The notes beneath the pieces were generated by a model, which was not told the origin of the DNA, made no database searches, and worked only from the letters and a program-made list of their open reading frames with translations. The position numbers were made by a program, and so were the translations under genes. From positions 480,001-544,000 of the forward strand of contig JAXGPA010000001.1 in assembly GCA_040767195.1 (NCBI GenBank): 64,000 bases of DNA. Reading direction: 5' to 3'. This document shows positions 23,322-58,949 of the stretch, piece after piece. How positions within the stretch are numbered: position 1 is the first letter of the stretch; each line of letters begins with the position of its first letter. This DNA is from Syntrophales bacterium (lineage in GTDB: Bacteria > Desulfobacterota > Syntrophia > Syntrophales > UBA6807).

Positions 23322-25460
23322 TCACAGGCCGGGCAACGCGTCCAGCATGGATCCGTCTCTCGAGGCGTTCAGCTGGAAAGCGGCGACCGTCCCCGTGGAA
23401 GAAATCACCAGGTAAGTCGCCTCGGAAACAGAATTCCCGAAGAACTCCGACGGCTTGATGATGATTTTCCCTCTGGCCTCGAGACCGGTTGACTTCACCG
23501 CCACTTTCCCGCCTTCGTCGTTGAAGAGTTCCACGGTGAGCGTGGCCGCTTCGCCGTCGATGTTGACGACCCCGATCCCCGTTGCCCCGTCTTTTTCCAT
23601 TTTCGGCAGGATGGCCGTCAGCCCGTCGATGTTGAGGGTCTCGTGACAGGCCGCCAGGTTCACCCGGCGGAAGAAAGTCAGGCCTGTCACGGGAACGGGG
23701 GACGTGACTTCGAACCACCCGGCTTTTTCCGGAAGGGTGAAGGCCCCCGGGTACCGGAGGTTTATGGAGCTTTCCCCTTCGATGGACAAAACACTTTCCT
23801 CAAGGGGCTCTCCCCCGTCGCCGTAAGGCTTGATCGTGATGTCGCAAGACTCCCCGGATGTGTTGAAAACAACGCAATCCGTTTCCCAGCCGTTTTCACC
23901 CGCCACATGCACATTGTACAGGGCAAAGCCCCCGTCGTCCTTGAGCGGGATTCCTCCCAGCTGCCGCCCCCGGGCAAACAGGGCGACCCCTATGACGCCG
24001 TCGCCGTTTTCGATGACCGCCGACGAGAGGGACGGCCGGGGCCGCCCGTCGAAGAGCTCCCTGATGGAGAAGGCCCGCTGGTGAAGGGATTCGAGGATCA
24101 GGCTCTTTTTCGTCCCATCGTTGAACGCCATGGTGATGACCCGGCGTTCCCGGGACGTGTTCAGCAGGGCGAGCCCCGTCGCCGCCTGTTCGTTCGATTC
24201 GACATGGGGAAGGAAAAGGGGGCCCTGGTTGATGTCGCTGTTCCTGAAGGCCGGAGAAGCCGCCCGGCAGACACCTTCAAGAAACCACTTGGCATATCCC
24301 GCCACGGTCTCCGACGGGCTCGTAAAAACCGCGTAACGGACCTGGCCGGCGCTCTCGAACCCCGAACCGGGATCCCCGGCAAGGACTTCGAACCGTCCCC
24401 TGGGAGGGAGATCAACCGCTATTTCGGACACATATTCTCCGTCGTCCCGGTAACCGATGAGGACACCCTCCAGGGGGTCTTCGGCGCTTGTGTTGATGAT
24501 GGCTATTTCCGTCTCCCACCGCCCGTCGCTGACCACATAGGGGAAGTGAACGAGCTGGATGTCCTCGCAGGCCTCGATGTCCGACGCCCAGGCGACCATC
24601 CCGCCCTGCATGACATACACGAGAGGATAGCCCATGGAATCGAGAAAGCGGCCCGCCCGGTCAGCCCGGACACCGGATCGGCAGATGAGGAGGACCGGTC
24701 TGTTTTTCTGCAATTCCCCATATCTCAGCTGGAAGACCCCGGAATTCCAGGGATAATTCACGGAACCCGGAATGTGTCCTGAACAGTACTCGCTTGCTTC
24801 CCGGACGTCGACGGCCTGAACGTTTCCCGACGTCTGCATCATGACCTGGGCTTCTTCCGGCGTTATGGTGGAATGAACCAGAGGAAGGAAGTTCGCCTGC
24901 ACATTTTTTCTCGAATCGACGACAAGATCCGACGGGTTGGCGCTTCCATCCAGATCACCGGACCACTGGTCGAACCGGTATCCAGTCGCGGGAACGGCTT
25001 CGACCCGGGCCGTCGCGGGGGACGGAAAGGAAATCGTCCCGGGATAGGCGCTGATGAGGCTGCCGTTGACCTTCACCTGCCCTCCCCCGGACGGATTCAC
25101 GGAAACGGTCAGTTCCAGGATGGGGGCAAAAACGGCCGTGACGGTTTTCTGGCAGTTCACGTACAGGATGGCCGGATTGGCGCTGCCCGTCAGGTCGCCG
25201 GCCCAATGGTCGAAACGATATCCCGCACCGGGAACGGCCTGAATCTGAACGTTCCGGCCAGAGGAAAAACTGACATAGTAGGGAAAGGAAGAGACGGAAG
25301 CCCCGTCAATCCTCACGGTTCCACTGTTTTCGGGGCTGACATACACGGTCAGGCCAAGGCTGCTTCAGGCCCCTTCCGCCACCCCGGCGGCCGTTAAAGA
25401 GTAAACGAAAATCCATGCCACAAGAATTGACATGAGAACAAGAGCTCTTTTTCCTTTCAT
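23322..25460 (-). CDS. Exported putative selenoprotein (U32): signal peptide, 2 divergent InlB-B-like repeats, rhodanese domain, four-repeat surface module
   Basis: ATG 25460 gives MKGKRALVLMSILVAWIFVYSLTAAGVAEGA-TGA(25365-25367)-SSLGLTVYVSP, in frame with the 674-aa ORF. GYRFDHW.GDL repeats; DVRE..EY..GHIPG and ICRSGVRA rhodanese motifs. Confidence 0.8.
25334..25355 (-). promoter_or_regulatory. Candidate SECIS hairpin after TGA 25365-25367
   Basis: GG-C-CUGAC[CGUGUAU]GUCAG-CC at +10 to +31 from the UGA, with loop GU at +19/+20. Confidence 0.6.
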
Positions 25461-25507
25461 AAAGACACGTTCCCTTTCAGATCGAGATTTCTGCGTTTTC
25501 TTAAATT

Positions 25508-25921
25508 TTATGGATGGTCATCCATGACCATGAGATCCTCGAGGGTTGTCTCCCGAAGGATCTCATCCGTTGTTTTCTGGATTTTCATCCACAGCGTCCT
25601 GGTTTTGCAAGAACCGGACCGGGAGCACCGGTCCCCATTCCCGACACAGTCCGCAACAACCGTGGATCCTTCCATCACCCGAAGGACGTCCATGATCCGG
25701 ATGTCCCGGGGACGCCTGGCCAACTCGAACCCGCCCCGGGACCCCCGGACGCTCCGGACGAAACCCGCCGCTTTCAGCCTGTTGAAGAGTTGTACCAGGT
25801 AGAGGCCCGAGATCTCCTGCCTTTCTGAAATATCCCGAACGACAACGGGACCCGTTCCGGACCGGAGAGCCAGGTCCAGCAGGGCCCGGACGGCGTATCG
25901 ACCCTTCGTCGAGAGATTCAA
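25508..25921 (-). CDS. Rrf2-family transcriptional regulator (IscR-like, three Cys)
   Basis: STKGRYAVRALLDLA, VRSVRGSRGGFELA, C-x6-C-x5-C cluster ligands; TTG start. Confidence 0.92.
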   Translation of the reverse strand: MNLSTKGRYAVRALLDLALRSGTGPVVVRDISERQEISGLYLVQLFNRLKAAGFVRSVRGSRGGFELARRPRDIRIMDVLRVMEGSTVVADCVGNGDRCSRSGSCKTRTLWMKIQKTTDEILRETTLEDLMVMDDHP

Positions 25922-26816: not shown

Positions 26817-26818
26817 CC

Positions 26819-33339: not shown

Positions 33340-33346
33340 GATTTCC

Positions 33347-34569: not shown

Positions 34570-37281
34570 TTAGAAATCCCACGCCTCATCGAATGGGTGT
34601 TTTTTAATAGGCAACGTCGTTGAGGCCTTACCGGAAGCACCCGTCCCGTCGACCACCTCGAGGGTGATGACATGCTCGCCCTCGGAAAGCTGTTCCGCCG
34701 TCACCTCCATGCCCTGGCCGAGGGGACCGTCCAGGCTGGAAGACCAGGAGAAAACAGCCGTATCGCCGACGGGGACACCCTCCTCGTCATAAGCGGACCC
34801 GGTGAACGTGAGCGTCGGGTACTTGGTGTAGTAAACAAAGCTTCCGTCGCTGTCCTCTTGCGGCGACTTATTGACGGAAATCCGGACAACCAGTTCCCGG
34901 GCCGGCTTATCGACCCCCAGGGCGTTCAGGCTGTCCAGGAGGGCGCCGTAGGCGTTTACCTGGAGGGCGATGACGGCTTCGCTGGACGCATAGCGGATGT
35001 AATTCGCCGAAGAGACATCCGTTCCGAAGTAGTCATCGTTGACAAAGGCCACCTCCTTCGCGCCGGGCGCCAGGGTCAGTCCCTTCACGGCCACCTCGAG
35101 GCCGTCGTTGCTGTAAAGGGTCAGGGTGATCTCCGCCGGGATCTCCTGTGCGTTGAGAATGGAAATACCCGTCACGGCCGTATCGTTCAGAAGCGGCAGA
35201 ATGCCCGATTTCCCCTCGAGACGGAGGGACCGGGACCCGGAAAGAAGGGTGGCGCCGGTATTGGCAAAAAGCTCGAGGCCGTCGGCCAGTTCCTGATCGG
35301 AAACCACGGCGAGCCAGGACACGCCGGAGGAGAATCCCAACGCGCCGGGATAGGTCGTGTATTTCGAGCGGGCCTCCACGGAAACCTCCTCGGCCCCCAG
35401 GAACAGACCGGCATCGTCATAGGCCGTGATGGTCACCTGGGCGGCATTTTCCGACGGATTGACGAGGACCATCGCCGTCCGCCAGGTTCCATTTTCCACC
35501 ACCTGGGGGAAGATCTGTTCCGCGCCGGTGCGGCCCGAAATCAGGTAGGCCTCCATGGTGTGGGTGTTCATGATCTTCGCCATGGCGACCACGCCGCCCC
35601 GGGAGGGGCTCTCGTCCTTGACGATGAGATAGGACGCCCCGGAAACGGCGCCTTCGGGAAAAATCGTCCCCACGTCGACAAAGGCCTGCTGACCCGGTCC
35701 CAGGAAAAGGGGCCGGGATTCCTCGACCATCCCGTCGGCCAGGACGAGCCGAAGCGTTTTTTCCTCCCCCGTCGTGTTCACGAGGTCGACTTCCGTCGAC
35801 CACATGCTGTTGGAAGCGACCTGGCAGGCATACAGGTCGCCCTGTTCGGCCAGGGCACCGCTTCCCACCGCCGGCACCATGGCGCTGTACTTTTCGAAAG
35901 CGAAGAACCGGTTGCAGCCGACGACGGAATCACCGGAGGCGCGGAAAAGGGCGAACCCCTTTCCTTTCAGGCCGGCGTACTTGGGCTGTATCCCGTCGAT
36001 GATGAACACCTTCCTCTGAAGGGGATAGATGGTCAGTTCTTTTGGCTCGGCAGCCGCCGAGCCGTCCTGGTTGTAGACCTCGAAGGTGCCCCTCAGGGTT
36101 GTAACGCGGCTTGCGTTCACCAGGAAGATCTCGGTGCGCCACCCCTGTTCGGCGGTGACATAGGGGAAATAGAGGACATGGGGCCCGTTGACCGGTTTGG
36201 GGTCCTCCCCGGGATCCACCGGACCGGGCGGCGTCGGGGATGTTTCTGTCTGAACCGTGAACGCCATCTTGCTGACAGGCCCCGAACCCGACGAATTTGT
36301 CGGCTGAATCGACCACTCGTATGTCCCGTCGGCCAGGGCGTCGGGGATCCGGTAAGCGCACTGCCCGTCAGCGGTCACCTCATCGGCCCGGAGGGTCCCG
36401 CTGAAAGCGACGGAGGAATTTCCGCTTACGGCGAGCCGGTAGGCGGTGGCGCTTTTTTCCTCGGTCCATTTGAAAAGGGGCCTGTCATCGGAGGTCGTTC
36501 CGGAGGGCGAAATGAGCGTGACGGCCTTGGGCGGCCCTCCGACGGGAAGGCTGTGGGTCGTGAATGTGACATAGAAATTTTCGTAGAATCCCTCCTGATC
36601 GAATCCCGGATAGACGATCCCGATTCTTCCGGTCTCGTTCTCGAGGCCGGCTACGGTGTTGCCCTTGCCGCGGGAGTAGACCTTGATATAATTGAACTGG
36701 ATGTCGTTGGAGCCCTCATGAAGGACCATCTGGAATGTGACGTTGTAATCGTCTCCAAGCCCGGTAGACGAATCGAAACGAACATTTTTGAACTGAACGA
36801 TGAACTGTCTTTTTCCTGAAACCACCCGGGTTTCGTAGTACACCCTGTGCTTGTCCCCTCACGTGCCGCACGCGAACAGGTCATCCCAGAAGCCGGCGAT
36901 GACGCTGTTGATCGCATCCAACCGGTCGGGAAGACCGTTTCCCTGGTACGTCTGGCCATTGATGACGGCACCGGGATCGAAGGACAGGAGTCCGTTTGTG
37001 GCCACACTTACAGAACTGTAATACTGACCGTAAAAGTTGAAACGAAAACCAATGGGAATGTCGGGAACAACGATGTCTCCCGAAGTTCCTATCTGCACCG
37101 GTATTCCAGTCGACGTCCGCTCGATGTCCGTCCAGGAAAAAGCCGGAGCTCCTTCTTCGTGACTGTCGTAATACCGGTACCCGTAACTGTCAGGTCCCCC
37201 CGTCAGCGCCCAGGACAGAGCCGGCACGGACAGGAAGAGAACGAAAGAGAAGGCCAGGAATTTCATGACGGTTCTCTTCAT
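34570..37281 (-). CDS. Exported putative CxxU selenoprotein (903 aa, U141): nidogen-like N-domain, Ig/FN3-like domain, four-repeat surface module, PKD-like tail
   Basis: ORFs 36859..37281 and 34570..36843 share a frame and are joined by FWDDLFACGT-TGA-GDKHRVYYET. AGGAGG SD and signal peptide occur only on the upstream part; the domain continues across the TGA. Confidence 0.85.
36823..36849 (-). promoter_or_regulatory. Candidate SECIS hairpin after TGA 36859-36861
   Basis: CAC-A-GGGU[GUACUACGAA]ACCC-GG-GUG at +10 to +36, loop starting GU at +18/+19; less canonical than the other two. Confidence 0.5.
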
Positions 37282-37474: not shown

Positions 37475-39337
37475 CTATTTTGGATCGGACCGCCCCTTTG
37501 CCGATTCCAGGGGAAAACCGGTCAATTTTTCCTCTTCACCGCTTCTTTTGAACCGTTCCCCCGCCGTCAAAAGATACAGCCCCCGGTCCGGCCCGTTGAT
37601 CCGGCAGACCCATTCGGTCACCCGGCCCTCCCTGACAGCCTCGTCCACATCTTCCTTGATGCCGCCGGGGATCCCGTCCCGGGGAATTTCCCTTTCCTTT
37701 TTCCTGAAAAGGAGCATGGCCGCCGTGGCCTCCCACTCTTCGGGCCAGACGACGGCCCTTTGCCGGTAGACGTGCTCCAGGGCATACCGGGCCTGGAAGC
37801 CGGGGGAGCGGATGATCTTCGGGATGAGCGTTTCCGGGACGGCATAGTGGGGCGTTTCATTGTAGTAGAGAATGAGGAAGTCGATATCCCTTTTTTTCAT
37901 GTACGCCAGGTCGAATCCCCCGCCATGAGTGACCTCGTTGTCCATGAGGCCCCGGATATCGACGACGGTCCGTTTCTCCAGATAATAGGGGACCTGGCCG
38001 CACTGGACCGTGGCGACGACGGCCCCGCCGGGAAGCCGGCGGTTCAGGGCCCGCCCCACCACGCCCATGGGGTGAATGTCCAGGTTTTCGTCGGTCAGCC
38101 AGTCCGCCGCCTTTTCCCGGAAATCCGAGGGGTCCTTCAGGTAATGGAGAAGGTTCGTGACCATGAGGGACCGGGTCGGTGTCTCGGGCTTGAAAAAGGG
38201 CGTCACCGGGGAGCGCGCCAGGGCGAGCTGGGCCAGGACGACGGCACCAAGAAGGACGGCGGCCAGGGGGGCGGCGGCCTTCGGGGAAAGGAATTTCTTT
38301 GTCAGGTCGGCCACGGAGAGGAAGCCGGTGCCGACCAGGAGAAAGAAGAGAGGGATGACGGGAATGATGAAGCGGTAAAAATAGACCCTGAAGTCGCCGC
38401 CCACGAAGACCACGAAGGACAGGTACGCCGCCGTGAAGAAAAGAAGGAGCCCGCTTTCCCGGCACCGCTTCGGGTCGGCGAGAGCGGCCAGGACGAAGGG
38501 AACGAGCCACAGGGCTTGGATATCCCGGAAGTAGGATATGACATAGTCGAACCCTCTCAGGACGGCCTTTTCCGAAAACGGGGCCACCTTGACATAATAG
38601 GGGTTCGGCAGGGGATATCCGTAGTACAGGAACTGGGTCACCGTGTACAGGCCGAAGGGGACGGCGAAAAGGACGACGGCCGCCGCCGCCCGCCTGAGAA
38701 TGGCCGTCTCCCTGCTCTTGAGAAAGAGGACGAGGTCGATGACGAGGGAGGCGAGGAGAAAAACCGGCCCCTCGGGCCGGGTGACGGCGCACAGAAAGAA
38801 GAAAATCGCGTAGGCCGGGAAGGCCCGGTTCTCCTCCAGGGTCCGGATGTAGGAAAGGACTCCGGCAAGGGCCAGGAGGGTGAAGAGGAGTGTTTCCATC
38901 CCGTTCTGGGCGGCCAGGACGAAGTGGGCGCTCGTGGCCAGAAGAAGGGGCGCCGCCAGGGACAGCCCCCCCCATGACCGGTTTCTCTCCAGAAGCCACG
39001 ACCAGGAGATCCACAGGACGGCCAGCGCGGAGACGACGCCCAGGTATCGGGACCAGGAGACAACGGAACCGCCGAGACAGGAAACGGCGGCCAGGATGAC
39101 CGTCCAGAGAAAATTGGAGTAGCCCCACACCGGTTCACCGGGGTTGAAGACGAGACCCTGGCCGGCGGCCAGGTTTTCCGCATAGCGGAAGGAGATGAAA
39201 GCGTCCTCCAGGACGGCGAAAAACACCGAAACGGCCAGGACAAGGAAAATCGACGCGGGAACCAGGTACAGGAGAAACTTGAAAAAGAACGGGTATTTTT
39301 TCCTGTTCACGGGAATCGTCTCACCAAGGGGGTCCAT
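37475..39337 (-). CDS. Multi-pass GT-C-like membrane glycosyltransferase (AftB-like family)
   Basis: [48 protein letters not shown]. Confidence 0.78.
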
Positions 39338-40618: not shown

Positions 40619-40637
40619 TAAATCCTTCACTGGGCGA

Positions 40638-41459: not shown

Positions 41460-41506
41460 CCGCGTCTTGAGGCCTTGTCTCTATTTGCCGACGGCGGCCG
41501 GGATAG

Positions 41507-44493: not shown

Positions 44494-45647
44494 TTCGTTT
44501 CCCCTTGATCTTTCTGCAGCATGAGCTCCCTGTGCTTTTCCGAGAGTTCTTTCCAGAGTTTCTTCGCCTCCTCGAACATTCGTTTATCCACGTCCGCGTC
44601 CCTTGTTTTCATTTCTTCGGTGAGCTTCTTGTAAATGTCGTCCGGCGCGGACCCGATCATCCCGGCGATCCGCGGATCGCCCGGCACGGACCGGTCCAGG
44701 GAAACGATCCCGTTCTCCCCCGGGACTAATTTCCCCGTCTCTCCCCGTATGAGGGTGGCATAGCCGAGGTCCTTTCCCATGTAGTTGGCCCGGTAAACGG
44801 GAACGCCGGACGGGGCGTCACCGGGAGCCCCCGCTTCTGCTCCACCACCGGAACCGCCGCAGTCGCCCGTTTTTTCCTCGAAGGCCGCTGATCCGCCCCC
44901 TTCCGAAAACGGGGAGGCGTCGTTTCCGCAGTAGATGACGAGATCCAACCCCTTCAGTCCGTCCACGACTTCAAGGGTTTCCTTCCTGCCGCAGCTCGAA
45001 AGGAGAACGACCCCGTCCGCTTTTTTCCGCACTTCCGGGATGAGGCTTTCGAGAACGCTCCGGGGGGATGAGACTTGAAAGTTTTTCCCCTCTTCTCCCG
45101 TCAAGGCGGCGATGTTCTCCTGAAGCCTGGGAGGCAGGACACCGATGAAGGCGATCCGGGACTTTCCGGCCTCCACGACGGTGTAAGGCACCCAGAAGGG
45201 ATTCAAAGCGCCGCTATATTCAAGATTCGCCGCCAGGAAGGGAAAAGACGCCTTTTCTCTCACATGATTAAGAAAATCAATGCCATGGGAGAATTCGTTT
45301 TCGCCCAGATTGAGCGCCCTCACGTTCATCGCCCCCAGGGTGGTGACGCCCAGTTCCGCAAGGACCTGAAGTTCCTTAAAAGAATATCGGCTCACGGGAA
45401 AGAGGTTCCCCGCGTCCACCAGGATGACGGGACCCTGTTTTTTTTCCAGTTCATCGATAACCCACTGTGTTCGGGCCAGACCGCCCGAATTATTTCCCCC
45501 TCACCCTCGGACAGGCGTCAGCCGCCCGAGGAGGTCTCCCGTGTAGACAACGGTGACCCTCGTTTCCTCTTCGGCTGAAAAAACAACGGCGGGAAACAAG
45601 GCAATCGCGCACAGAACGAGGGCGCAGGCCCACATCTTTCTCATCAT
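44490..45647 (-). CDS. UshA-like (5'-nucleotidase N-domain) exported putative selenoprotein, 385 aa, U49
   Basis: ORFs 45501..45710 and 44490..45419 are in frame: signal peptide-VVYTGDLLGRLTPVRG-TGA-GGNNSGGLAR...LVDAGN...LGENEF...PFLAAN; GGAGG SD before ATG 45647. Confidence 0.9.
45470..45489 (-). promoter_or_regulatory. SECIS hairpin after TGA 45501-45503
   Basis: Perfect 7-bp stem UUCGGGC[GGUCUG]GCCCGAA; GGUCUG at +19 to +24, the same offset as in the E. coli fdhF SECIS. Confidence 0.8.
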
Positions 45648-45716: not shown

Positions 45717-48176
45717 TTATTCGGTGAGACCGTCGCCCATGAGGCGCGTTCCGTCCCCCGTGGCGATGAGGTAAAGGCCGCACAGGGGCGTGTCTCCCGA
45801 CGAGATCCTGACATAACGGGCCTCCCCGGCCAGGGCCGCTCCGAAAAGATTTTTCAGGGTTCCGGCGATGCGCTCCCGGGGATTCAGCCGGCCCGTCCAC
45901 GCGCCCAGGGGGGCGCCCCCGGCGTCGTGAAGGGTCATGGTCACGTCCGTTGCGCCGTCGGAGGGATTCAGGACGGCCACCCCCGTTCCCCAGGGACCCA
46001 GGCTCGCCACGTGGGGCAGGTGAAGGACAGGCCCCGTCGCGGGCGCCCGAAGGGGAACCCCCGCCAGCTGGCCTCCCGTATTCGTACTGAAGAGAACGCA
46101 CCCCGTCAGCGGCTCGCCTTCCCGGGAGGTCACTTCCAGGGAGGCGATCTCACCGGGTAAGACGCCGGGAAAGATATCCGGAACGTCCCGGACGAGATTC
46201 TGGCCCGGCTTCAGGAGGCAGCCCGCCTCGCCGAGGAGCCAGCCGTCGGCCCGGTAAGCCCGGAAGACCGCCCGGGTGTCCCCGGCGCCGCTGTTCATGA
46301 CGAGGAGTTTTGTCCGCCAGTAAGCGTTGCAAGCCACCTGGGGGGCAAAAAGACGGGTCCCCGCCCCCTCCCGTCCCAGGGGGACGAGGGCCGTGTCGCC
46401 CGTCGATGACGACTCGTATGAGAGCTTCATGTATCCCAAAAGGGACGGCCGGCCGCTCGTCGTCGCGGCGGTCATGGTGTTCCCTCGAACGGGAGAATTG
46501 GGAAGGACCCAGAGATCTTTCGTATTCGATTCAAGTTTCTGACCCGGCCCGAGGGTGACCGTGTCGGTCCGCAGCGGATGGCCCTCGGAATCGAAGGACC
46601 GCCGTTCCACCTCCTCCGTCTCGTCGCCCGTGTTGATGAGCCCGTAAAAGGTTTTCCACCCGCCCGATCTCGCTGAATAGGGAAAGGAGACCTGTTCGAC
46701 CGCCCCGGTTTGGGAAAGGAGATTGGCGCCGTAGAGAACGCTTTTCCCCTCCGATAAGGCGTTCAGTCCTCTCAGGGTCTCGTCGCTGTCCACCCGGACA
46801 TACCCGCCTCTCGTTGAACCGAGTCCGAAATCGGCCAGAGTCCCCCTGACCTGGGAATCGAGGCCGTTGAACTCGTGAGCCTCTTCAATCCGCCCGGCCG
46901 GATCGATGGTGGCCAGGATGACCCGGCCCAGGGACCCGTCGGGATTGAGAACGGCCATCCCGTTCCCCAGGCTTCCGCCGGGGTCGTCCGGAAAATAGGC
47001 CGTGTTTCCCAGGCGCACGCTGAGGTAGAGATCGTAGACCGGTTCGTAGTAGGTCGTGTCGGAATAATAATCGGGCCTGACGGGAAGAACCTCGAAATAG
47101 TAGTGACCGGCTGCGTACGCCGTCAGCTCCAGGACGTCCTGATGAAGCAGCGTTCCGAGACGCTGCCGGTCGGGATCGGGACCGTAGACCTGGACGATAA
47201 CCTGCCCTTCCCTGGGGGGCGTGCCCTCACCGTTCACCCGTTCCGCCGTGATCCGGTCCCCCGGACCGAGAAATACCTTGAAAAAGTCGGCATTGCAGGA
47301 CATGAGCCTCAGGTGGCCTCCCGGGACGGCCGCGGCCGTCTCGAAGGTGTCGTTCTCCTCGTAGCGGTCATCGTAGGTGTAAACGATGTCCCGGACCCGC
47401 GCGTAGTCGATGCCGGGGTTGAGGCAGTCCCGGACGGGATCGTAGGATGAAACCCCGGCGCTTCCCCTTTCCCAGCCGCTTCCGGTGATCCGGCTTCCCT
47501 CGAGGGTGAAGTAATAATAAAACGTTTTCGCCGCTATTTTCGATCCCACGTAGTCCGGGGAGACTTCGTCGGAAACATAGTAGACTTTCGTCGTGTAATG
47601 CCGGGTGCCGCCCTCTTCCGTGTAACCGGTCTCGTACTTGTAGACGGGGTAATTCCAGACCTCATCGTCGGTGCCGAGATCCATGATGAAGGGGAGACCC
47701 CGCTCTCTGATGTATTCCTCCAGAATGGCATGGAATTCTTCCGGTGTTTCCGTTCGCAGGCGGATGCTTTTCGTGTAGGCGTTGTCGTTCGCCACGGTGA
47801 GAAGGGCCTTCTTGTCGCCCACGTAAAAAATCGTTTCCCCGTAAAATCCGCCGTTTACCGGTTCTTCCTCGAGGATGGCCGCCGCCGCCCAGCAATAGCA
47901 CATTCCCTCCCAGTACTTGGCGAAAGGATTCCGGTAATACCTCATCCCGTAAGCCGTCGCTTCTCCCCCGTACGTTCCGGAGGTGACGAAATCATATTTC
48001 TCCAGCGGCGACGGATGGCCCCGGTAGGCAGCTCCCGTGACAAGCCCCCCCTGCCTGAAAGGCCACCAGTACCCGGACCAGGGCACGTAATCGGCCTCGT
48101 ACGTGTCCGCCGCGGCGGACAGGGGAAAGGCAAGAAGAAGGGCCAGAAGGACCGCCGCGATCGATTTCCCGCTCAT
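45717..48176 (-). CDS. Exported protein: transglutaminase-elicitor-like N-domain, PPC-like domain, four-repeat surface module
   Basis: Signal peptide from ATG 48176; PWSGYWWP, SPLEKYD, WEGMCYCWAAAA, VWNYPV motifs; DDRYEENDT. Confidence 0.7.
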   Translation of the reverse strand: MSGKSIAAVLLALLLAFPLSAAADTYEADYVPWSGYWWPFRQGGLVTGAAYRGHPSPLEKYDFVTSGTYGGEATAYGMRYYRNPFAKYWEGMCYCWAAAAILEEEPVNGGFYGETIFYVGDKKALLTVANDNAYTKSIRLRTETPEEFHAILEEYIRERGLPFIMDLGTDDEVWNYPVYKYETGYTEEGGTRHYTTKVYYVSDEVSPDYVGSKIAAKTFYYYFTLEGSRITGSGWERGSAGVSSYDPVRDCLNPGIDYARVRDIVYTYDDRYEENDTFETAAAVPGGHLRLMSCNADFFKVFLGPGDRITAERVNGEGTPPREGQVIVQVYGPDPDRQRLGTLLHQDVLELTAYAAGHYYFEVLPVRPDYYSDTTYYEPVYDLYLSVRLGNTAYFPDDPGGSLGNGMAVLNPDGSLGRVILATIDPAGRIEEAHEFNGLDSQVRGTLADFGLGSTRGGYVRVDSDETLRGLNALSEGKSVLYGANLLSQTGAVEQVSFPYSARSGGWKTFYGLINTGDETEEVERRSFDSEGHPLRTDTVTLGPGQKLESNTKDLWVLPNSPVRGNTMTAATTSGRPSLLGYMKLSYESSSTGDTALVPLGREGAGTRLFAPQVACNAYWRTKLLVMNSGAGDTRAVFRAYRADGWLLGEAGCLLKPGQNLVRDVPDIFPGVLPGEIASLEVTSREGEPLTGCVLFSTNTGGQLAGVPLRAPATGPVLHLPHVASLGPWGTGVAVLNPSDGATDVTMTLHDAGGAPLGAWTGRLNPRERIAGTLKNLFGAALAGEARYVRISSGDTPLCGLYLIATGDGTRLMGDGLTE

Positions 48177-48880
48177 TCCGTCACCATCCCGTATTCCATG
48201 TCGGCGTTTCTCCCGAAAAGACAAAAGGGCCGCCCCTCTTCCCAGTACTGGGTGAAGATCTCCCGGCCGCCCTCGCCGGTGACCCGGATTTCGATGAGCT
48301 TACGGTCCCGGAGTAACGGCGGAACCCCGTCGGGGTTCGTCACTTCCCGGACTTCCTGGGCCAGGAGGACTTCCCGGTAGAGCCCGCCGCCCGCGGCAAT
48401 CTCCCGCCGGTACGTCCGTACCGAGGGCACCTGGGCGGGAAAGGCGGGGAAATCGAAGGGGACGAGGGATTTTTCGGCGACAGCGGGCGTCCCATCGGGG
48501 TATTCCAGGGTGAAGGTCACCGCCTTTCCCCGCCGGCTCTGGGTGAGGTCGGCCCGGACCAGGGACCGGGAACCGCTGAATTCCAGGCGGGCCGCCTGGT
48601 CCAGGCGCCCGCCGGCGTCCCGCACCTCCACCGCCGTGCCGCCCGGCACGGCGGCTTCCCGTGACGGGAGGGGGAGGAAACGCCAGGTAACCGGTTCGGA
48701 CCATTTCTCCCGATCCAGGGCCGAGCGGTAGACGGCCCGTACGAGCCAGGCCTGTCCCTCGCCGGGAATCACGGGCTGAAAGACCGCATCCGCCGCGGCC
48801 AGGAGTCCCGGCGCGAGGGCCAGGATCACCGCCAGCCCGGCGGCTGTCGCTTTTCTCTTGAATGACGCAAACCGTCCCAC
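48173..48880 (-). CDS. Exported hypothetical protein
   Basis: Signal-peptide-like N-terminus; ATGA overlap with the next gene indicates coupling. Confidence 0.65.
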   Translation of the reverse strand: MGRFASFKRKATAAGLAVILALAPGLLAAADAVFQPVIPGEGQAWLVRAVYRSALDREKWSEPVTWRFLPLPSREAAVPGGTAVEVRDAGGRLDQAARLEFSGSRSLVRADLTQSRRGKAVTFTLEYPDGTPAVAEKSLVPFDFPAFPAQVPSVRTYRREIAAGGGLYREVLLAQEVREVTNPDGVPPLLRDRKLIEIRVTGEGGREIFTQYWEEGRPFCLFGRNADMEYGMVTE

Positions 48881-48899: not shown

Positions 48900-48931
48900 A
48901 AAAAATTTGGGCGGGATTTCTCCCGCCCAAA
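48900..48931 (-). terminator. Rho-independent terminator
   Basis: TTTGGGCGGGA-GAAA-TCCCGCCCAAA hairpin followed by a T-run on the minus strand, about 35 nt after stop 48966. Confidence 0.88.
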
Positions 48932-48965
48932 TGGTGATGCATTTTCAATACCAGGCTGCTTGTTC

Positions 48966-50306
48966 TTAGAAGCCCGCGTTCATCAACGGAGACAGCATGT
49001 CGTAGAGCCAGGACTTCATGGCCCACTCGACGGCATAGCCGCAGGGCCGCGCCATGGTGCTTCCACCGAAACCGCCCAGGAGCACGAACTCATAGCCGTC
49101 GGCCGGGAAGTTGGTCTCGATTTTCATCATCATGGGACCGGATGCGAGGCTCCCCATGCCCAGAGCGTCGAAGGTGTCTTCGTCCAGAACCCACGTCACG
49201 ATGGACTTGTCGAAGTCGGTGAGCTTCTTGGAGAGGGTGTTACCGTACTGATCGGTGAACGTCACCGTCACTTCCATGTCGGCAATGGAAACGCCGCCCA
49301 GGTTCGTCAGGGCGATTCCCGTAGCCCAGTTGTCGTCCTTCCCGATGACATAGGGGAAGTAGATGCAGCCGCCCATGAGCGTGTCGTCGCAGCACATGAT
49401 GCCGATTTCGATTTCGCACGCACACACGTCATCACAGGTGGGGCAAACGCCGCCCTTGCCGGTGACGAGTTCCGCGAGGACCTTCACGGTCTGCCCGGGA
49501 ACGATTTCCGACTTGACATACCACATGGCCGGCACGTTGAAGAGCCAGTAGTTGGTGCCTTACATTATTCCTTGGCATCGGCTGATCACGTAGCCGTTGT
49601 CCGTAGCCGTGCAGATCCGTGGCCGTGCAGATCTGCTTGACTCTCGCCGCCTCGGTGGTCGTGGGTTCGCAGACATCCTTGAGGTCCTGAACTCCCCTTT
49701 CGTGAGCAGCTTGTCGCAGGTGACGGCGGATCCCGTGGAACCGGGGGTCGTGAGATAGAGAAGAAGATCGCCACAGTTGAAGTACTGGGGGTTCTTCATG
49801 TAACGGGGATACTCATCGGAGCAGGCCAGTTTCAGATCGGTGAAGGTCTTCACGAAGATCTCGTCGCCCATGAAATACACGCCGTTCCCCTGGGTGATGG
49901 TGAACCGGAAGCCGACCGTGTTGCCATCCTCGAGAAAATCTTCAGGATCTTCGCACTCGCAGACGTCGAAAATCAGGCGGCAGTTCCGTCCAAGGATGCC
50001 GGACATCGCTGATCCATCACCGTTTGTTTTATAATGCGAGGGAAGATCGATACCCAGTTTCGAGAGATCGGCGTTGCCCAGGCAGGCCCAGCCCACCAGG
50101 TCGTGCTCATTCGGATATTCACCGATCATATCCCAGTCGAAATAGGTGCAGCACGGGTCCCCCTGTCCGAGGGTTATGCCGCAGTTGATGTTCCAGAGGG
50201 GACACTTGCAGTTCAAGCAAGCAGCCGACTCATCCGCCGCGGCCGCCGTCATGGCGAAGCCCATGACGAGCGCCATAGCCATCAGAGTAATCAATACTTT
50301 TTTCAT
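48966..50306 (-). pseudogene. Cysteine-rich putative major surface (S-layer-like) protein; frame broken at about 49560-49700 (possibly an assembly error)
   Basis: Signal peptide MKKVLITLMAMALVMGFAMTAAAA; many Cys pairs; C-part in another frame ends with CIYFPYV....WATGIALTN. Own promoter, GGAGG SD and terminator. Confidence 0.7.
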
Positions 50307-50431: not shown

Positions 50432-50461
50432 AATATAATCGAAAGACTTTCCCGTTGTCAA
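50432..50461 (-). promoter_or_regulatory. Near-consensus sigma70 promoter of the putative surface-layer gene
   Basis: TTGACA (50456-50461), 18 nt, TATATT (50432-50437), then a purine-rich leader of about 120 nt. Confidence 0.65.
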
Positions 50462-50482
50462 GGGCTTTTCTCGCTCTCATGC

Positions 50483-51937
50483 TCAAAACCCTTCATCTTC
50501 CGCCGTCAGGGGGAAAAAAAGGATCCTGTTTTGCGTCTTCACATCGAAACATCGAAAATGTATCTCGCCGCTCACGTCCACCGTCACCGAGTAGATCCCC
50601 GGGCCGGCCTCGCAGCTGAAGCCGCCGGCCGAATCCGTTTTCAGCGGGACTTTCGTTCCATCCTGCCCCTGGACGGTCACGGCCACGCCTTCCAGGCCCT
50701 CTCCCCAGCCGTACAGGCCGTCCCCGTCGGCGTCGTGAAAAACCAGGCCGGTAATGTGCGTGCGGCGGCTGTCGGGGATAGGGATCCCGTAATCGGCCAC
50801 GGCCATGGTGACGTCTCCCCGGCATAAATCATAGGCGCTGTCGTCGGTCCCGAAATATCCCGAAAGGATTCCGAAGCCGGCGTGCCGGGTCCTTTCGTTC
50901 ATCATGTCAAGGCGCTCCTTCTGATCCAGGCGCTCCATGTCGCGGAAAAACCACGCCCGGAAAAAGCGCTGCAGCAGTTCCCCTTCGGGGATCGCCGGTT
51001 CCTCCCGGTACCACCGCCCCAGGGTCTCCCGGACGGCCGCCACGGGATATCCTTCCCCGGCCGCCCGGTCTTCCGGGTAAAGGCCGTCCGGTGTCACCGA
51101 GCCGAAATAGATCCGGTCGAACATGTCCCGAACATGTCCCTGGGCGGACCTGACAAGCCGCCCGTCCAGGGTCAGCGGCGGCAGGCCGTACCGAAGGAAA
51201 TACTCCCGGTCCGGATAGGCCCTGAAAAGGCTTTCCCCGCTCTTTCCCAGCCGTTCCGCCATGGCCAGGGGCTGTGCCCGGGCCTGGTTGATCCGGTAAA
51301 GCAGTTCCAGGTACGCCCGGCTCGGGCCGGAACCAAAGGTGCAGGTGGCCACGTACACGTTGGAGGACAGACCGTCCATGACGAGGATCCCGCCGTCAAA
51401 GGCAAGACCGATATCGTCGAAATCGGGAGAGAGAACGTATCGTTCCGCCGTCCTTCCCGGGTCGAACTCATCCCGGACGATTTTCTCGAAAAGGATTGTC
51501 ACGGCCTGGCCCGGATCCATGTAATTGGAAAAACTGACGAGACCCACCGTCTCGCCGATCCGGAACGCCAGGTACCCCGCCGTCTCGGCCCGCTCCGCCG
51601 GGGAGACGCCCCCCTCGCCACCGGGAGCGTAAACATCGTCTACGAGCATGTTCCCGTTCCCCGCCCGGGCCGCCTCATCGAGCCGGCCTTCTCTCACAAG
51701 GGGGCCGAAACCCGCCTCGAACAGGGTCTCCAGGCCGGGATCTTCCCGGAAGAGGGGCTCGAGATCGATGCCGAGGCGCGCCGCGGCAGCCCGGGGGTTC
51801 TCCCGGACCTCGTTGATCCTTTCCAGGAGCCACTGCTCTTCAAAGGAGAACTCCCCGTCGGCGGCGGCGGCACAGATGGGGAAAAGCATCACCCCCGCGA
51901 GAAGGACAAGGCTGAGACGCAGGACTTTTTTCTTCAT
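50483..51937 (-). CDS. Exported protein with two CAP/SCP domains and an SdrD-B/carboxypeptidase-regulatory-like C-domain
   Basis: Signal peptide; two INxxRxxP...L..AA/SA...M...P.ERA...GY units; ITGLVFHDADGDGLY..GEGL.GV.V. Confidence 0.82.
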   Translation of the reverse strand: MKKKVLRLSLVLLAGVMLFPICAAAADGEFSFEEQWLLERINEVRENPRAAAARLGIDLEPLFREDPGLETLFEAGFGPLVREGRLDEAARAGNGNMLVDDVYAPGGEGGVSPAERAETAGYLAFRIGETVGLVSFSNYMDPGQAVTILFEKIVRDEFDPGRTAERYVLSPDFDDIGLAFDGGILVMDGLSSNVYVATCTFGSGPSRAYLELLYRINQARAQPLAMAERLGKSGESLFRAYPDREYFLRYGLPPLTLDGRLVRSAQGHVRDMFDRIYFGSVTPDGLYPEDRAAGEGYPVAAVRETLGRWYREEPAIPEGELLQRFFRAWFFRDMERLDQKERLDMMNERTRHAGFGILSGYFGTDDSAYDLCRGDVTMAVADYGIPIPDSRRTHITGLVFHDADGDGLYGWGEGLEGVAVTVQGQDGTKVPLKTDSAGGFSCEAGPGIYSVTVDVSGEIHFRCFDVKTQNRILFFPLTAEDEGF

Positions 51938-52049: not shown

Positions 52050-54521
52050 CTATTTCGAGCCAGTCTCATGGGTGCTTTCTCCGGTGCCGGCGGCTTTCTG
52101 CCTTTTTTCCAGGTCTTCGAGAAGGCCCTTGAAGTCCGCCCGGTCCCGGAGACCGGCCAGGTCGCCGTCATTTGCAAGAAACGCCCCGTTTCGGAAACCT
52201 CTTTCAACGGCTTTTTTCAGGGCCGTCACGGCGTCTTCGTTCCTGCCCTGGGCCGCCCGAACCCGGGCGATCTGGTAAAAAGCCGTCACTTCGACACGGG
52301 AATCCCCCGTCATGGCCTCCCTGAAGGCCGTCACGGCTTCCTCGTATTCTCTTTGCCGGGCCAGGGCCGCGCCCAGGCTCATCCGGGCCTGCGCGTCATC
52401 GGGACGAATGCGGAGCGCCTCCCGGTAGGCCTTTTCCGCCTCCCCGGCCCTTCCCTGGATCATGCGCAGGTCGCCCAGGCGGCTCAAAGCATTCGGCGAG
52501 GGCGGATCCAGGCGGGCCGCCGCTTCCAGGTGATCCGCCGCCTCGTCGAGCCTTCCCATCCCCGCCAGGGTGACGCCGAGCCTTTCACGGGCCTGCTGGT
52601 AGAAGGGATCGAGGCGGACCGCTTCCCTGAGGCTGGCGATGGCGTCCTCCTGCCGCCCCAGGGCACCAAGAACCAGAGCCAGGTTGTAGCGGATCTGGGG
52701 GCTTCGGGGGTCCGCCACGGCGGCCCGGCTGTAGAATTTCAAAGCCTCCGCGGTGTCTCCCTTCCTGTAGAAGAGGTTCCCGAAACGGGCCAGCATCTCC
52801 CCGTCAACGCCGGTTTTCTCTTCCAGGAGTTTCTCATAAATGGCCCGGGCTTCCTCCACCCTGCCCAGCCTGGAATAGGCGCCGGCCAGGTTGATCAGGG
52901 CGTCGGGATAAGAGGGATGAAGGTCGAGGCTCTTGCGGAAAAGGGCTATCGATTCCTCCGCCTGGCCCGCCTTGAGCTTTTCCAGGCCGAGGTTGTTGTA
53001 GGCCCGTATGTTCCAGGGCGACTTGGACAGGACATCGCTCCAGAGAGTCGTCTCGTTCAGCCAGACACGGTTCCTGAGATGGGCCGCCGTCCCGTAGGAC
53101 ACGATGAGGGCGACAGCCACCGCCACGGCCAGGACGGACTGCCTTGAAAAGAGCCGGAAAAGCAGGTCCGCCAGGAAGAGGGCGAAGCCGAAGAGGGGCA
53201 GGTAGAGCCGGTGCTCGAAGAGGGCGTCCCGGATGGGAATGAGGCTCGATTCCACGGAAAGGGTGACGAAAAACCACAGGACGGCGAAGGCAAAAACGGG
53301 CCAGCGCCGGTTCTTCCAGACAGCCAGGGAAAGGAGGCCGACCAGGAAAAGAAAAGCCCAGGGCGTGACGCCCGTGAAAAAACCCTGGACGAAGGGCATC
53401 ATGTAATCGGCGTTCTGGTGGACGGGCAGGACGAAGAGCCTCAGATAGATGACAAGCACATTGAACTGGGTGAAGAGGTAGGTGGAACGGCTCACCAGCG
53501 TCGTTTCCCGGGTCAGCCCGTACGCGTCCTCCAGGAGATTCCCCCGGCCGGCGAGGAGATCCCCGAGACCGAAGACGAGAAGGCCTGAGACGATAAAAAA
53601 GAGCGCCGTTCCCCCGATCCAGGGAAGTTTTCGCTTCCAGTCGGCGGCGGAACCGCGGAAGCAGAAAAACTCCGCCAGGAGGAGGGCAAGGGGAAGGCTC
53701 ACGGCGTTCTGCTTGGAAAGGACAGCCAGAAGGCCGGAGAAAACGGCGAGGACGAAAAAGACGGCGGCCCTGGGATATGAAATCTCGGTCGCAACAGAGG
53801 CATGGGCCGGGAGGGCGGGAGCCGGGGAAACGTGCTCCGGCGTTTTCCTTTTTCTCTTTTTTCCGTCTTTCCCTTTTTCGGGGCTCTTCGCCGCGGTCCC
53901 GCCGTCTTCACCGGCGGGCACGATGCCGCTGTCCCGCCTCCCGAGGACGGCCATGCGGCCCCTCAGGTAGAACAGGACGGCAGCCATGTAAAAAAGGGCT
54001 GCCATGGACGCGTAGCGCTGGACCGTGTAGGTGACCGCCTGGGTCTGGACGGGGTGGACGACGAAAAGGAGCGCCGCGAAGAGGGAGCAGGCGGAAAGCC
54101 AAAGCGGGGGAAGCCCCCCTTCCCGGCCGTTTCCCTGGAAGATGTTCCACAGGAGGGTCCGGGCGAGAAAATAAACGACGAAACCGTTCAGGATATGGAG
54201 GAGGACATTCACCAGGTGATAGCCGAAGACATTCGTCTGCCCCGCCCAAAAATTGAGGGCGAAGGTGAAGTCGACGACACCTCTCGGCCTGAAAAGATTC
54301 TTTCCTTCGAGAAGACCGGTGAGATCCCGGATGGATCTGTTCTCCTCGATCAACTTGATGCCGTCGAAGACGAACTCGTTTCCGTAGATGTTTCCGTAGA
54401 CGATGAAAGCGGCGAGGGCGATGACGAAAAGATGAAACGCCCCGTGGTAAAAAATCCGCTCCCGCGGTTCCGGGCTCCCTTTTTTCAAAGTTTTCATTTC
54501 AGCCATTGGCCATATTCTCAC
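52050..54521 (-). CDS. TMTC-like membrane protein (GT-C-like TM region plus TPR repeats)
   Basis: FVFD, GYHLVNVLLH, HPVQTQAVTY..QR, EHRLYLP, RN.VW....LW.D, followed by several TPRs. Confidence 0.85.
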   Translation of the reverse strand: MRIWPMAEMKTLKKGSPEPRERIFYHGAFHLFVIALAAFIVYGNIYGNEFVFDGIKLIEENRSIRDLTGLLEGKNLFRPRGVVDFTFALNFWAGQTNVFGYHLVNVLLHILNGFVVYFLARTLLWNIFQGNGREGGLPPLWLSACSLFAALLFVVHPVQTQAVTYTVQRYASMAALFYMAAVLFYLRGRMAVLGRRDSGIVPAGEDGGTAAKSPEKGKDGKKRKRKTPEHVSPAPALPAHASVATEISYPRAAVFFVLAVFSGLLAVLSKQNAVSLPLALLLAEFFCFRGSAADWKRKLPWIGGTALFFIVSGLLVFGLGDLLAGRGNLLEDAYGLTRETTLVSRSTYLFTQFNVLVIYLRLFVLPVHQNADYMMPFVQGFFTGVTPWAFLFLVGLLSLAVWKNRRWPVFAFAVLWFFVTLSVESSLIPIRDALFEHRLYLPLFGFALFLADLLFRLFSRQSVLAVAVAVALIVSYGTAAHLRNRVWLNETTLWSDVLSKSPWNIRAYNNLGLEKLKAGQAEESIALFRKSLDLHPSYPDALINLAGAYSRLGRVEEARAIYEKLLEEKTGVDGEMLARFGNLFYRKGDTAEALKFYSRAAVADPRSPQIRYNLALVLGALGRQEDAIASLREAVRLDPFYQQARERLGVTLAGMGRLDEAADHLEAAARLDPPSPNALSRLGDLRMIQGRAGEAEKAYREALRIRPDDAQARMSLGAALARQREYEEAVTAFREAMTGDSRVEVTAFYQIARVRAAQGRNEDAVTALKKAVERGFRNGAFLANDGDLAGLRDRADFKGLLEDLEKRQKAAGTGESTHETGSK

Positions 54522-55554: not shown

Positions 55555-55575
55555 GGGATGGAAACGCAAGGACCC

Positions 55576-56634: not shown

Positions 56635-56711
56635 CCTTCAGGCCGGTTCAGAACCGCCGCCCCGCTGACCCTCCCGGCGGAGGCGACGCCCGGTGACGGA
56701 CAGAACCCCGT

Positions 56712-58949
56712 TCACGGGACCTCGGGGATGTCATAATCGATGATCGTTTCCGCCTCCCCGTTCAGATCGAGTTTCACCACGCCGATGCCCTCGCCGAGCC
56801 AGTAGTAGAGAGGCGGCAACGCATAGGTATCGCTACCCACATAAGATATAAAAAAGGAGTTTTTAGACTTAATCTTGATGTCTTGGGAAATCCGGATGAC
56901 GTTCCGGTAAAGGGAATCCCGGCTCGTCACATCCTCGATACCGACGATGGTGGTCTTGATCTCGATGCTGAGCGGTATATCCATACTAAAAATACCGCTA
57001 GATACTCTTATTGTGGCCGTCGTCGTGTCCTCGTAGACCTGGCCGACCTGGATGTTCTTGGGTATATAAAGGAGCGGCGCATCGAAAAGGACGTCGCCGA
57101 TCGGCAGCGGCTGGCCACCATTTTCCCTTAAGACGTAGTACATGCCGTGAAACTTGATCCCGTCGGCATCGCTCGTGAAATACTGCTTCGTTCCCGTGTC
57201 GTACTGGTAAACCAGGGTGGTGGCCTCCGAAACCGGTTTCGTCCCGCTAATGTCCGTCCGGGTTTCTTCACCCGACTCCTTTTCGTAGGTCCACCAGCTT
57301 CCCAGCACGAGGGGAAAGTAGTCCGACGCCACGTAGGCGGAGGGGTCGACGGACACGGCGGCGGTGGCGCTTATCTCGCCAATTTCGGCGGTCACGGTGG
57401 CCGCGCCGACTTCCTTGCCCTTCACGAGGCCGGCCTGGCAGATCGAATTCTCCACCGAGGCGGTCCCGCTGTTCGACGAGGTCCAGGCCACCTGGTCCGT
57501 GATCTCCCGGCACGTCCCGTCGGAATACCAGCCAAAGGCGCCCAGGCTGGCGGTCTCATGGATTTTCAAGGCCAGGACGTCGGGCATGATTTCAATGGAC
57601 GTGAGCACGGCCGGGGCCGGGGCCGGGTTCAGGCTTCTGATCGAGTCCAGGGTCTGACCGTTGGTGGAGGCGTTCATCTGGAAGGCCACCACCTTGTCTT
57701 CCGACGCATAGGCCAGGTAGGTGGCCCCTTCAGGCTTTGTGCTGAAAAGATAGTTCATGGAAGCCAGCGGCTCGCCCACCGGAAAAACGAAGGCCACCCA
57801 TTTCTGCCGGGGCCCGAGATTAATAACGGTGCTGTCGATCACGTCTCCCCCGTCGTCACAGGCATCAACGTTGACGGATGTACTTTCGGCATTGTCGTTC
57901 ACAAAAACGACGCCGGTCGCCGCGGAACCCGTTTCGATCTTCGGCAGGATTCCCGTCGTGGCCCCTTCCCGGGGCCCCATGTATCCGGCCAGCTGCCTGC
58001 TGTGGGCGAAAAGCTCAAACCCCGAGAGGGGCCTGGTCGCCGTGATTTTGGCCCAGCCGTCGGTGATGCCCAGTGGCAGCGTGCTCGCCAGGCGACTGAT
58101 CCGTTCGCCCCCTTTCAGGAGAAGATCGACAGGGGGCCGGGCCGTTCCGCCCGTCGTAAAAGGGGAAACGGTGATCGTGCTGTCCTGGTAGCTGGTGTTG
58201 TAGGCCACGATCCCCGTGTTCCACCCTCCGGTCATGACGAGATGGGGGTAATAGACCTGAAGGGCCACCTGGTCGTCCAGGGGAATGCCGTCGAGGACCC
58301 GGCCGTTGGAAAAGAGGATGAGTCCGACGATGCCTTCGGCCCCCCGGATTTTGGCCGCGCTGATCCTGGGCTGGGGGGTATCGTCGAAAAGCGCTCTCAT
58401 GAAGAAAACCTCGTGGCGCCCGGCCGCCACGGATTTCGTCTTCGTGATGCCCGTATCGAACTCGAAGCACATGTCGATGGCGGCGTCCGTCGTGTTGACG
58501 ACGCTCACGCCCGTGGCCCAGGTGTCCGTTGAGGCGATGTGGGGAATGAAGATTTCCCCCCGGGCCGGCGATTGACTGGCCGGGATGGCGACGCTGTATT
58601 TCAGGGGATCCTGAAATTTCAGGTACCCCACGGCGTTATCAGAAGTGGTGGAAAAAACGAGGTAGCCGATCGTTTTCCCACCGGCATAATCCCGGACAAG
58701 GTCGGCGCCCCAGAAAACCCGCTTTCCCCGGGGCGGCAGGGTCACGTCGATCTGGTCGATGAGAGCGCCGCTGTCCTCGTGGAGATCCAGGGTTCCCGAG
58801 ACGGAATCGCTGTCGCTTCCGTTGATCAGGCCGATTTCCGTTTCCCAGTAAGCGTTACTGGCAAAGTGGGGATAATAGAGATCCCCGTGGGCCGGCGACA
58901 GGGCCGTGAGTATAAGAGCCAGGGCGGCGAAAGCGATTTTCTTTTTCAT
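56712..58949 (-). CDS. Exported protein: N-terminal four-repeat surface module, Big_2 Ig-like domain, C-terminal beta-rich domain
   Basis: Signal peptide; four P-x-W-x-T-x-N repeats; YSDGT..EIT..V.WTSSN (Big_2); YFPL..G..WTY...W...GIGVVK. Confidence 0.8.
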   Translation of the reverse strand: MKKKIAFAALALILTALSPAHGDLYYPHFASNAYWETEIGLINGSDSDSVSGTLDLHEDSGALIDQIDVTLPPRGKRVFWGADLVRDYAGGKTIGYLVFSTTSDNAVGYLKFQDPLKYSVAIPASQSPARGEIFIPHIASTDTWATGVSVVNTTDAAIDMCFEFDTGITKTKSVAAGRHEVFFMRALFDDTPQPRISAAKIRGAEGIVGLILFSNGRVLDGIPLDDQVALQVYYPHLVMTGGWNTGIVAYNTSYQDSTITVSPFTTGGTARPPVDLLLKGGERISRLASTLPLGITDGWAKITATRPLSGFELFAHSRQLAGYMGPREGATTGILPKIETGSAATGVVFVNDNAESTSVNVDACDDGGDVIDSTVINLGPRQKWVAFVFPVGEPLASMNYLFSTKPEGATYLAYASEDKVVAFQMNASTNGQTLDSIRSLNPAPAPAVLTSIEIMPDVLALKIHETASLGAFGWYSDGTCREITDQVAWTSSNSGTASVENSICQAGLVKGKEVGAATVTAEIGEISATAAVSVDPSAYVASDYFPLVLGSWWTYEKESGEETRTDISGTKPVSEATTLVYQYDTGTKQYFTSDADGIKFHGMYYVLRENGGQPLPIGDVLFDAPLLYIPKNIQVGQVYEDTTTATIRVSSGIFSMDIPLSIEIKTTIVGIEDVTSRDSLYRNVIRISQDIKIKSKNSFFISYVGSDTYALPPLYYWLGEGIGVVKLDLNGEAETIIDYDIPEVP

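Follow-up and report, generated by a model that had tools for sequence, protein, structure and literature searches.

Probable exported selenoproteins and a candidate surface-coat display system in a glycosylation locus of a Syntrophales bacterium

A 64,000-nucleotide stretch of a Syntrophales genome (Desulfobacterota; assembly GCA_040767195.1, contig JAXGPA010000001.1, positions 480,001 to 544,000; hereafter the window) encodes three exported proteins, A, B and C, that we are confident contain selenocysteine (Sec). The window also holds a conserved core composed of a secreted CAP-domain protein, a Cys-rich putative coat protein (S), a Cys enzyme (T), the UshA-like selenoprotein C and a small lipoprotein, with glycan-export genes alongside; C alone of the three selenoproteins is fixed in this core, and A and B are optional, patchy passengers. 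A four-repeat module found in A, B and other exported proteins is predicted from structure models to be a tetrad of ASRAH (TM1070/ASRT-fold) domains. We lean, by no wide measure, towards the view that these genes specify a type II-secreted, disulfide-rich, S-layer-like coat with an ASRAH display tag. Coordinates are positions in the window; G000 is the window's own assembly, and other G and L numbers denote the genomes and loci compared with it. The genes of the system and their signals are as follows.

23322..25460, minus strand: gene A; signal peptide, Sec32 just after the predicted cleavage site, two InlB B-repeats, rhodanese domain, predicted ASRAH tetrad
25330..25367, minus strand: UGA of A and its conserved hairpin, loop CGUGUAU from +18
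34570..37281, minus strand: gene B; signal peptide, nidogen-like domain with Sec141 (CGTU), immunoglobulin (Ig) domain, predicted ASRAH tetrad
36818..36861, minus strand: UGA of B and a covarying 6-bp hairpin, loop from +31
44077..44493, minus strand: small lipoprotein, directly downstream of C wherever both are seen
44490..45647, minus strand: gene C; UshA-like selenoprotein variant (RGUGG) with degenerate metal ligands and without a haem domain
45470..45503, minus strand: UGA of C and its hairpin, loop from +19; passes the bacterial SECIS (bSECIS) model
45717..48176, minus strand: gene T; GP42/transglutaminase-elicitor-like Cys enzyme with predicted ASRAH repeats
48905..48932, minus strand: 12-bp intrinsic terminator of S
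48966..50306, minus strand: gene S; putative Cys-rich coat protein, Ig-like N-domain and a single C-terminal domain of the predicted ASRAH fold
50432..50461, minus strand: sigma-70-type promoter of S, TTGACA-18-TATATT (11/12 match)
50483..51937, minus strand: secreted CAP-domain protein, the fixed upstream neighbor of S
56712..58949, minus strand: gene I; signal peptide, predicted ASRAH tetrad, Big_2 domain, no Sec

Probable selenocysteine codons in three exported proteins

A first-pass annotation of this DNA, made from the sequence alone, had described three signal-peptide genes with one in-frame TGA each, read these codons as Sec and predicted that gene callers would truncate the genes, and our analysis bears out all three points. 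The single internal TGA lies on the minus strand at 25367-25365 in A (codon 32; AEGA-U-SSLGLTVYVSP, then the two InlB B-repeats and the rhodanese domain), at 36861-36859 in B (codon 141; WDDLFACGT-U-GDKHRVYYET, in a domain whose homologs carry the nidogen-like PF06119) and at 45503-45501 in C (codon 49; TPVRG-U-GGNNSGGLAR). Gene calls P0006, P0049 and P0127 begin just past these codons and represent truncated A, B and C; truncation keeps these genes hidden in databases. The UGA is kept in place in 8 distinct A genes, where it invariably falls just after the predicted cleavage site, and in 7 B genes: among the 301 genomes of the class, the best 6 of 11 matches to B have one TGA in the same column (3 of these 6 sequences were already in the query alignment), the weaker 5 have none, and G359 supplies the seventh gene. 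The module was not seen for either of the two G611 copies of B. For C, the TGA is in place in 18/18 aligned genes from 16 genomes, and G359 brings the count to 19. In 13 of 156 distinct module open reading frames (ORFs), 8 of them type A and 5 type B, the signal peptide precedes a TGA in frame; another 107 start with a signal peptide themselves, 17 are truncated 5' and 19 were left unclassified. The TGA is present in every InlB-first and nidogen-first module gene. One contig assembled from reads spans the TGA of B and shows no differences.

Two observations weigh against reading these codons as Sec. The comparison of TGA with Cys in homologs, which had been proposed as a check, confirmed a TGA conserved in place but found Cys homologs of A and B to be nearly absent (0/33 distant domains, a single B case in L160, and none seen at the Sec position of A); for C, the residue of CD73 that aligns with Sec is a Cys. 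A search for the Sec machinery likewise succeeded in part: selA and selB score over the cut-off in G000, but selC and selD were not found there. The assembly measures 2.39 Mb, compared with 3.3 Mb for G001 of the same genus, and ARAGORN reports 39 tRNAs but none for Ser or Asn even though the assembly is rated 98.8% complete; from its smaller size and the lack of these tRNAs, we infer that DNA is missing from G000. Among the 31 genomes searched, selD is over the cut-off in 24, G001 among them, and selC is present in 5/5 module-bearing relatives, again including G001, whose selD and selC neighborhoods have no clear orthologs in G000. The absence of selC and selD is therefore likely to reflect missing DNA rather than loss from the lineage. 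G000 also encodes further TGA-interrupted motifs, which probably belong to two formate dehydrogenases, a peroxiredoxin, an AhpC-like protein and YeeE.

Hairpins downstream of the codons offer evidence of unequal weight. In our own version of the bSECIS model of a 2026 selenoprotein catalog (PMC13188914), C passes and the window's A and B fail; because 31/120 sampled ordinary TGA stops pass the same filter, single hairpin folds prove little. A loop G at +18 to +20, claimed earlier for all three genes, is present in A and C (at +19), but the conserved hairpin of B has its loop at +31. Conservation across families is stronger evidence than single folds. The A hairpin sequence accompanies 8/8 Sec-linked LTVxV motifs and 0/8 other LTVxV motifs, a count that includes several closely related sequences among the 8 and in which L237 failed to match the motif. 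For B, 88.9% of cells are paired and 3/6 pairs show changes in both partners, a result that exceeds every slid control, in a test on 6 related sequences with the structure picked by eye.

A and B are probably two selenoprotein families not yet catalogued. Table 1 of the catalog lists 119 families, including two UshA-like families and five rhodanese forms with Sec in the rhodanese motif, and contains no InlB-repeat or nidogen-like family (PMC13188914). NCBIfam assigns none of B, T, S and I to a family and gives A rhodanese-type matches only. A search of mainly open-access literature, in the main texts, returned no report of families A or B, of S-layer-linked selenoproteins or of the combination. 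Each of the A-type genes examined pairs Sec with a Cys of that domain (as UxC, as UxxC or close to the last strand); judged by topology, this fits an internal selenylsulfide. In B the partner Cys is variable or absent. Both candidate families would carry Sec within folds of the adhesin type, which makes a structural role or surface chemistry likelier than classical redox catalysis.

L125:5875-7473 (G001) is an A-type gene with UxxC and just two ASRAH repeats, and L028 and L041 hold rhodanese proteins of a known type, with a TGA at the active-site position, adjoining a sulfide:quinone reductase-like gene. The N-terminus of A, used as a single-protein query against genome contigs, returned generic InlB repeats only. 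A de novo hexamer-score search for genes with TGA read-through was too noisy and served only to spot a few motifs of known type.

The four-repeat module and the Cys-rich protein S

A, B and gene I, the Ig protein, have a common module of ~415 amino acids with four repeats each (blastp E 5e-59 to 8e-32). T had been credited with the same four repeats; it does share the module, but its window copy scores three, whereas 10/20 orthologs score four. The first repeat of T is degenerate. We rejected the idea of a three-repeat T that joins a single S subunit to make up a tetramer, as a degenerate fourth repeat scores in 10/21 T proteins and the spacing would fit one in others.

The model of the module from gene I (predicted local distance difference test, pLDDT, of 92) contains four domains whose best structural matches are TM1070 (1nc7; Z 14.2, root-mean-square deviation 2.1, 101 residues aligned) and ASRT (Z 11.3), with the next entry at 6.0; a Foldseek search with the whole module gave weak Ig matches only (template modelling score < 0.2). 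A Trp on strand 1 and an Asn ending strand 2 are invariant or nearly so (W14/N22, W123/N131, W222/N230, N330). TM1070 and ASRT define the ASRAH superfamily, which has this motif, a conserved Trp on strand 1 and an Asn after strand 2. Its secreted members are dyads or tetrads and its solo member is a tetramer; for the dyads and tetrads, sugar binding at the dimer interface has been proposed (PMC2739507).

The module was also said to occur once at the C-terminus of the Cys-rich protein, with its own promoter and terminator around the gene. The C-terminal domain of S is homologous to a single repeat (hhalign 96.5%, E 9.6e-10), and the promoter and terminator are present as listed above. We modelled an intact S ortholog from G001 (pLDDT 89). 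Its C-domain matches TM1070 (1nc7; Z 12.0, root-mean-square deviation 2.9, 105 aligned; next unrelated entry 7.4), and its N-domain is Ig-like with a weak likeness to Gram-positive shaft pilins (8wb8; Z 7.4, root-mean-square deviation 3.3, 129 aligned). Four S C-domains modelled together score 0.89 (best control 0.01), with contact agreement between runs of at least 93% and pLDDT of at least 85, against a mark that 20/30 solved pairs and 1/23 single chains reach. The S family comprises 317 clusters at 50% identity and has a median of 18 Cys, with 12 Cys positions more than 80% conserved; one named homolog of S points to Thermodesulfobacteriota.

The window copy of S is broken at about 49560-49700 by frameshifts and a TAA. 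Other sequencing runs show strain indels and many loose ends in S at 49555-49840, marking this part as hypervariable, which makes a chimeric assembly of a region that varies between strains likelier than a pseudogene. A short imperfect duplication lies within S at about 49600-49640. In contigs from RNA runs, word depth is highest over S (410-922 vs 1-221 elsewhere), but contig depth cannot rank genes and we made no use of it. An atlas search, taken as a lead only, scores S at 0.83 (DUF5719 25%, Slr4 12%).

The conserved core and a proposed surface coat

The module was found in 8/151 genomes of the order, 18/401 of the phylum and 77 metagenome loci, and T in 12/301 genomes of the class. T occurs in 13/19 further module-bearing genomes and 0/6 without the module, a contrast that is partly circular as T carries the module. 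Across 28 T loci (25 genomes), S adjoins T in 22/28 and C in 19/28, the misses being mostly contig ends; C and the lipoprotein remain adjacent to T even if inverted, and G489 has no C within 20 kb of T. CAP proteins, TPR membrane proteins and Wzm/Wzt recur around the T loci. One genome, G644, contains three separate S-T-C cassettes (L256, L257, L258). Neighborhood conservation, suggested earlier as a check, holds for the core around T, with A and B as patchy passengers. The three-Cys Rrf2 gene does lie directly upstream of A, as first reported, ending 47 bp from it, but this link is not conserved, and with 0 matches in 199 loci we rejected Rrf2 as a member of the system. Beyond the window, at C1:548695-565660 (5-22 kb away) and on the same strand, G000 encodes a TonB-dependent receptor, a sigma-54 two-component pair and a type II secretion system (T2SS) cluster in which GspD and GspE score over the cut-off; a TonB-dependent receptor and a sigma-54 regulator lie directly upstream of CAP in G647, G598 and G143.

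The residues of C and T bear on what these proteins may do. C scores 119.2 bits against the UshA-like family NF041198, below its cut-off of 275, with the CxU motif replaced by PVRGUGG, and 28 of 140 bits against NF049981 (CxxU). Only the N-domain of the nucleotidase aligns, and in it NDVH has become GDLL, DAGD has become DAGN and GNHE has become GENE. An active 5'-nucleotidase has dimetal ligands at these positions and a C-terminal substrate domain; C appears to have lost most of the metal ligands and does not have the features expected of such an enzyme. UshA-like forms with PCGU carry a multihaem C-terminal domain (G466, G301, G359), and CxxU forms do not. Six complete order-level forms of C without a proximal Cys (G000, G146, G081, two in G644, G611) have a Cys in a later loop, which suggests a Sec-Cys redox pair; the form in G500 has neither Cys. 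On these grounds C is the strongest candidate for a factor that would handle redox chemistry in coat assembly; among the three selenoproteins a disulfide role is plausible mainly for C. T matches Pfam GP42 (PF16683) over the cut-off and keeps the catalytic Cys, the mutated site of 3TW5, in 28/28 proteins.

In the coat that we favor, S subunits would meet four at a time through their C-terminal ASRAH domains, and the built-in ASRAH tetrad of a passenger would mimic this node and so attach the passenger to the coat, or to the same glycan at the surface. T, a Cys enzyme with a papain fold and the tag, would cross-link or trim the coat. Based on the lost metal site of C and the multihaem domain of its relatives, C and its lipoprotein partner could be a Sec-dependent thiol-exchange factor serving the many Cys of S or the active Cys of T. 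A and B would be optional passengers, with Sec most likely in a selenylsulfide with the same-domain Cys or as an exposed selenolate. We put forward only tentatively, and with distinctly less conviction than the coat itself, the fuller picture of a Desulfobacterota display system with a single-chain ASRAH tetrad in place of a four-fold node of a disulfide-rich S-layer, a dedicated UshA-fold redox factor and two new displayed selenoprotein families, one with a mature chain that starts at Sec.

Several findings count against the coat. The tetramer pass of the S C-domain may be explained by the likeness of the model to the solved TM1070 tetramer. The Slr4 family PF19526 stays below its gathering cut-off (18-19 bits vs 25) in the 3/80 S members that it touches, on the C-domain. 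The GP42 transglutaminase has a CH motif in which His directly follows the catalytic Cys (PMC10318531); this His occurs in only 6/28 T proteins, and window T has CY, so that acyl transfer by T, with the Cys kept throughout, is no more than likely. In G001, S, T and the lipoprotein are retained but C is missing from that position. Finally, G057, G127, G156, G190 and G201 have module genes, and neither S nor T was found there; absences of S are weak evidence, because a single-protein search for S found just 2/401 phylum genomes and the S profile missed a copy in G466.

These module genes in genomes where S was not found are also what would be expected if the ASRAH tetrads bound sugar and tied S and the passengers to the Wzm/Wzt polysaccharide, as CWB2 binds PSII. 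The sugar binding proposed for ASRAH dyads and tetrads (PMC2739507) and the position of the locus among glycosyltransferase and Wzm/Wzt genes speak for such a glycan anchor, which we consider unlikely though worth keeping in view; it overlaps the coat explanation, the sole difference being the docking partner. Less probable still is the thiol toolkit of the first-pass annotation, in which A, B, C, T and the rhodanese jointly build, shuffle or protect coat disulfides under Rrf2 control. The Cys content of S and the position of C by T agree with it, and in L201 and L204 the gene immediately after an A-type gene codes for a UshA-like selenoprotein with CxxU. However, A and B are patchy, sit in non-redox folds not of the thioredoxin type and make up only the 13/156 module genes described above, the rhodanese is found also on Sec-free module proteins, and Rrf2 drops out; the evidence does not support the three selenoproteins as a single set. 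We give slightly less credit again to a fiber, with S as a pilin-like subunit polymerized by T and tagged proteins at its tip or sides in place of a two-dimensional coat: the pilin likeness of the S N-domain and a Cys acyl-transfer fold encoded beside S favor it, but a Z below 8 may reflect merely a common Ig arrangement, and a node with four-fold symmetry at the C-terminus suits a square lattice better. A reading of the TGAs as genuine stops or nonsense mutations, which the missing selC and selD and the filter failure of A and B might suggest, is very improbable given a codon in the same place across families and orders, downstream parts without a signal peptide of their own, covariation in the B hairpin, selC in the relatives and the other TGA-interrupted enzymes of G000.

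Related systems and flanking genes

The module and S share the predicted fold, Trp/Asn motif and secreted dyad or tetrad form with the ASRAH superfamily, and the single domain of S, like the stand-alone ASRAH form, models as a tetramer. The described families of the superfamily are intracellular solo proteins, Chloroflexi amidase tetrads and actinobacterial lipoproteins; a single ASRAH domain on a Cys-rich major protein with many tagged Desulfobacterota passengers is unlike anything in the main text of that paper as accessible to us (PMC2739507). In its layout, the locus would work like the slp locus of Clostridioides difficile (SlpA, CWB2, Cwp84, PSII), which likewise brings together a coat gene, a tandem-anchor family, a tagged Cys enzyme, and secretion and polysaccharide genes; there is no homology, and the system described here differs in its Gram-negative host, T2SS instead of SecA2, four repeats and selenoproteins (PMC4973711). 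The Slr4 and Aeromonas VapA loci link an S-layer gene to a T2SS cluster, as is proposed here, and Slr4 forms a p4 lattice, but S is Cys-rich and belongs to neither family, and the accessible text on those loci mentions no tag family, transglutaminase or selenoprotein (PMC7821379, PMC10765051). The proposed tag would anchor proteins to the coat of a Gram-negative cell much as CWB2 or SLH repeats do, in a group of anaerobes often found in syntrophic contact.

Single components also have counterparts. C resembles NF041198 (CxU) and NF049981 (CxxU) in fold, in the Sec of the loop before GGLAR and in hairpin type, and differs by an RGU without proximal Cys and by the lack of a C-terminal multihaem domain; UshA-like selenoproteins are predicted-only in the 2026 catalog, and the proposed coat offers them a first testable role. 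T keeps the catalytic Cys of the GP42 transglutaminase (PF16683, 3TW5) and differs in its ASRAH fusion and in mostly lacking the CH His. The SAO system, the precedent for a cluster of exported selenoproteins, similarly contains several of them in one neighborhood, hidden by truncation, but its accessible description concerns ABC transport, organometallic chemistry and CU/CC motifs, without a coat or tag (10.1101/2022.07.06.499078).

The remaining genes of the locus lie between or beside those listed above.

25508..25921, minus strand: Rrf2 regulator with three Cys; adjoins A here, not conserved among relatives
37475..43949, minus strand: membrane glycosyltransferase-like gene, Wzt, Wzm, a protein of unknown function and an MBOAT acyltransferase
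48173..48880, minus strand: exported protein of unknown function; CT021/DUF3108-like as a lead only, found in part of the loci
52050..54521, minus strand: membrane protein with C-terminal TPR repeats

The atlas search gives the exported protein at 48173..48880 a score of 0.92 with 149 shared features, again as a lead only. By its architecture, the 52050..54521 protein is a probable TMTC-like protein O-glycosyltransferase. A secreted 591-amino-acid protein encoded at 59049-60824 has no Pfam or NCBIfam match and ends in a Gly-rich stretch and CFLSTLLK; its counterparts were seen only in the near-identical loci L165 and L166. On the plus strand, opposite to the system genes, 26819-31333 encodes a 1504-amino-acid methyltransferase-GT2-GT4 fusion, which is probably the glycan terminator of the Wzm/Wzt pathway.

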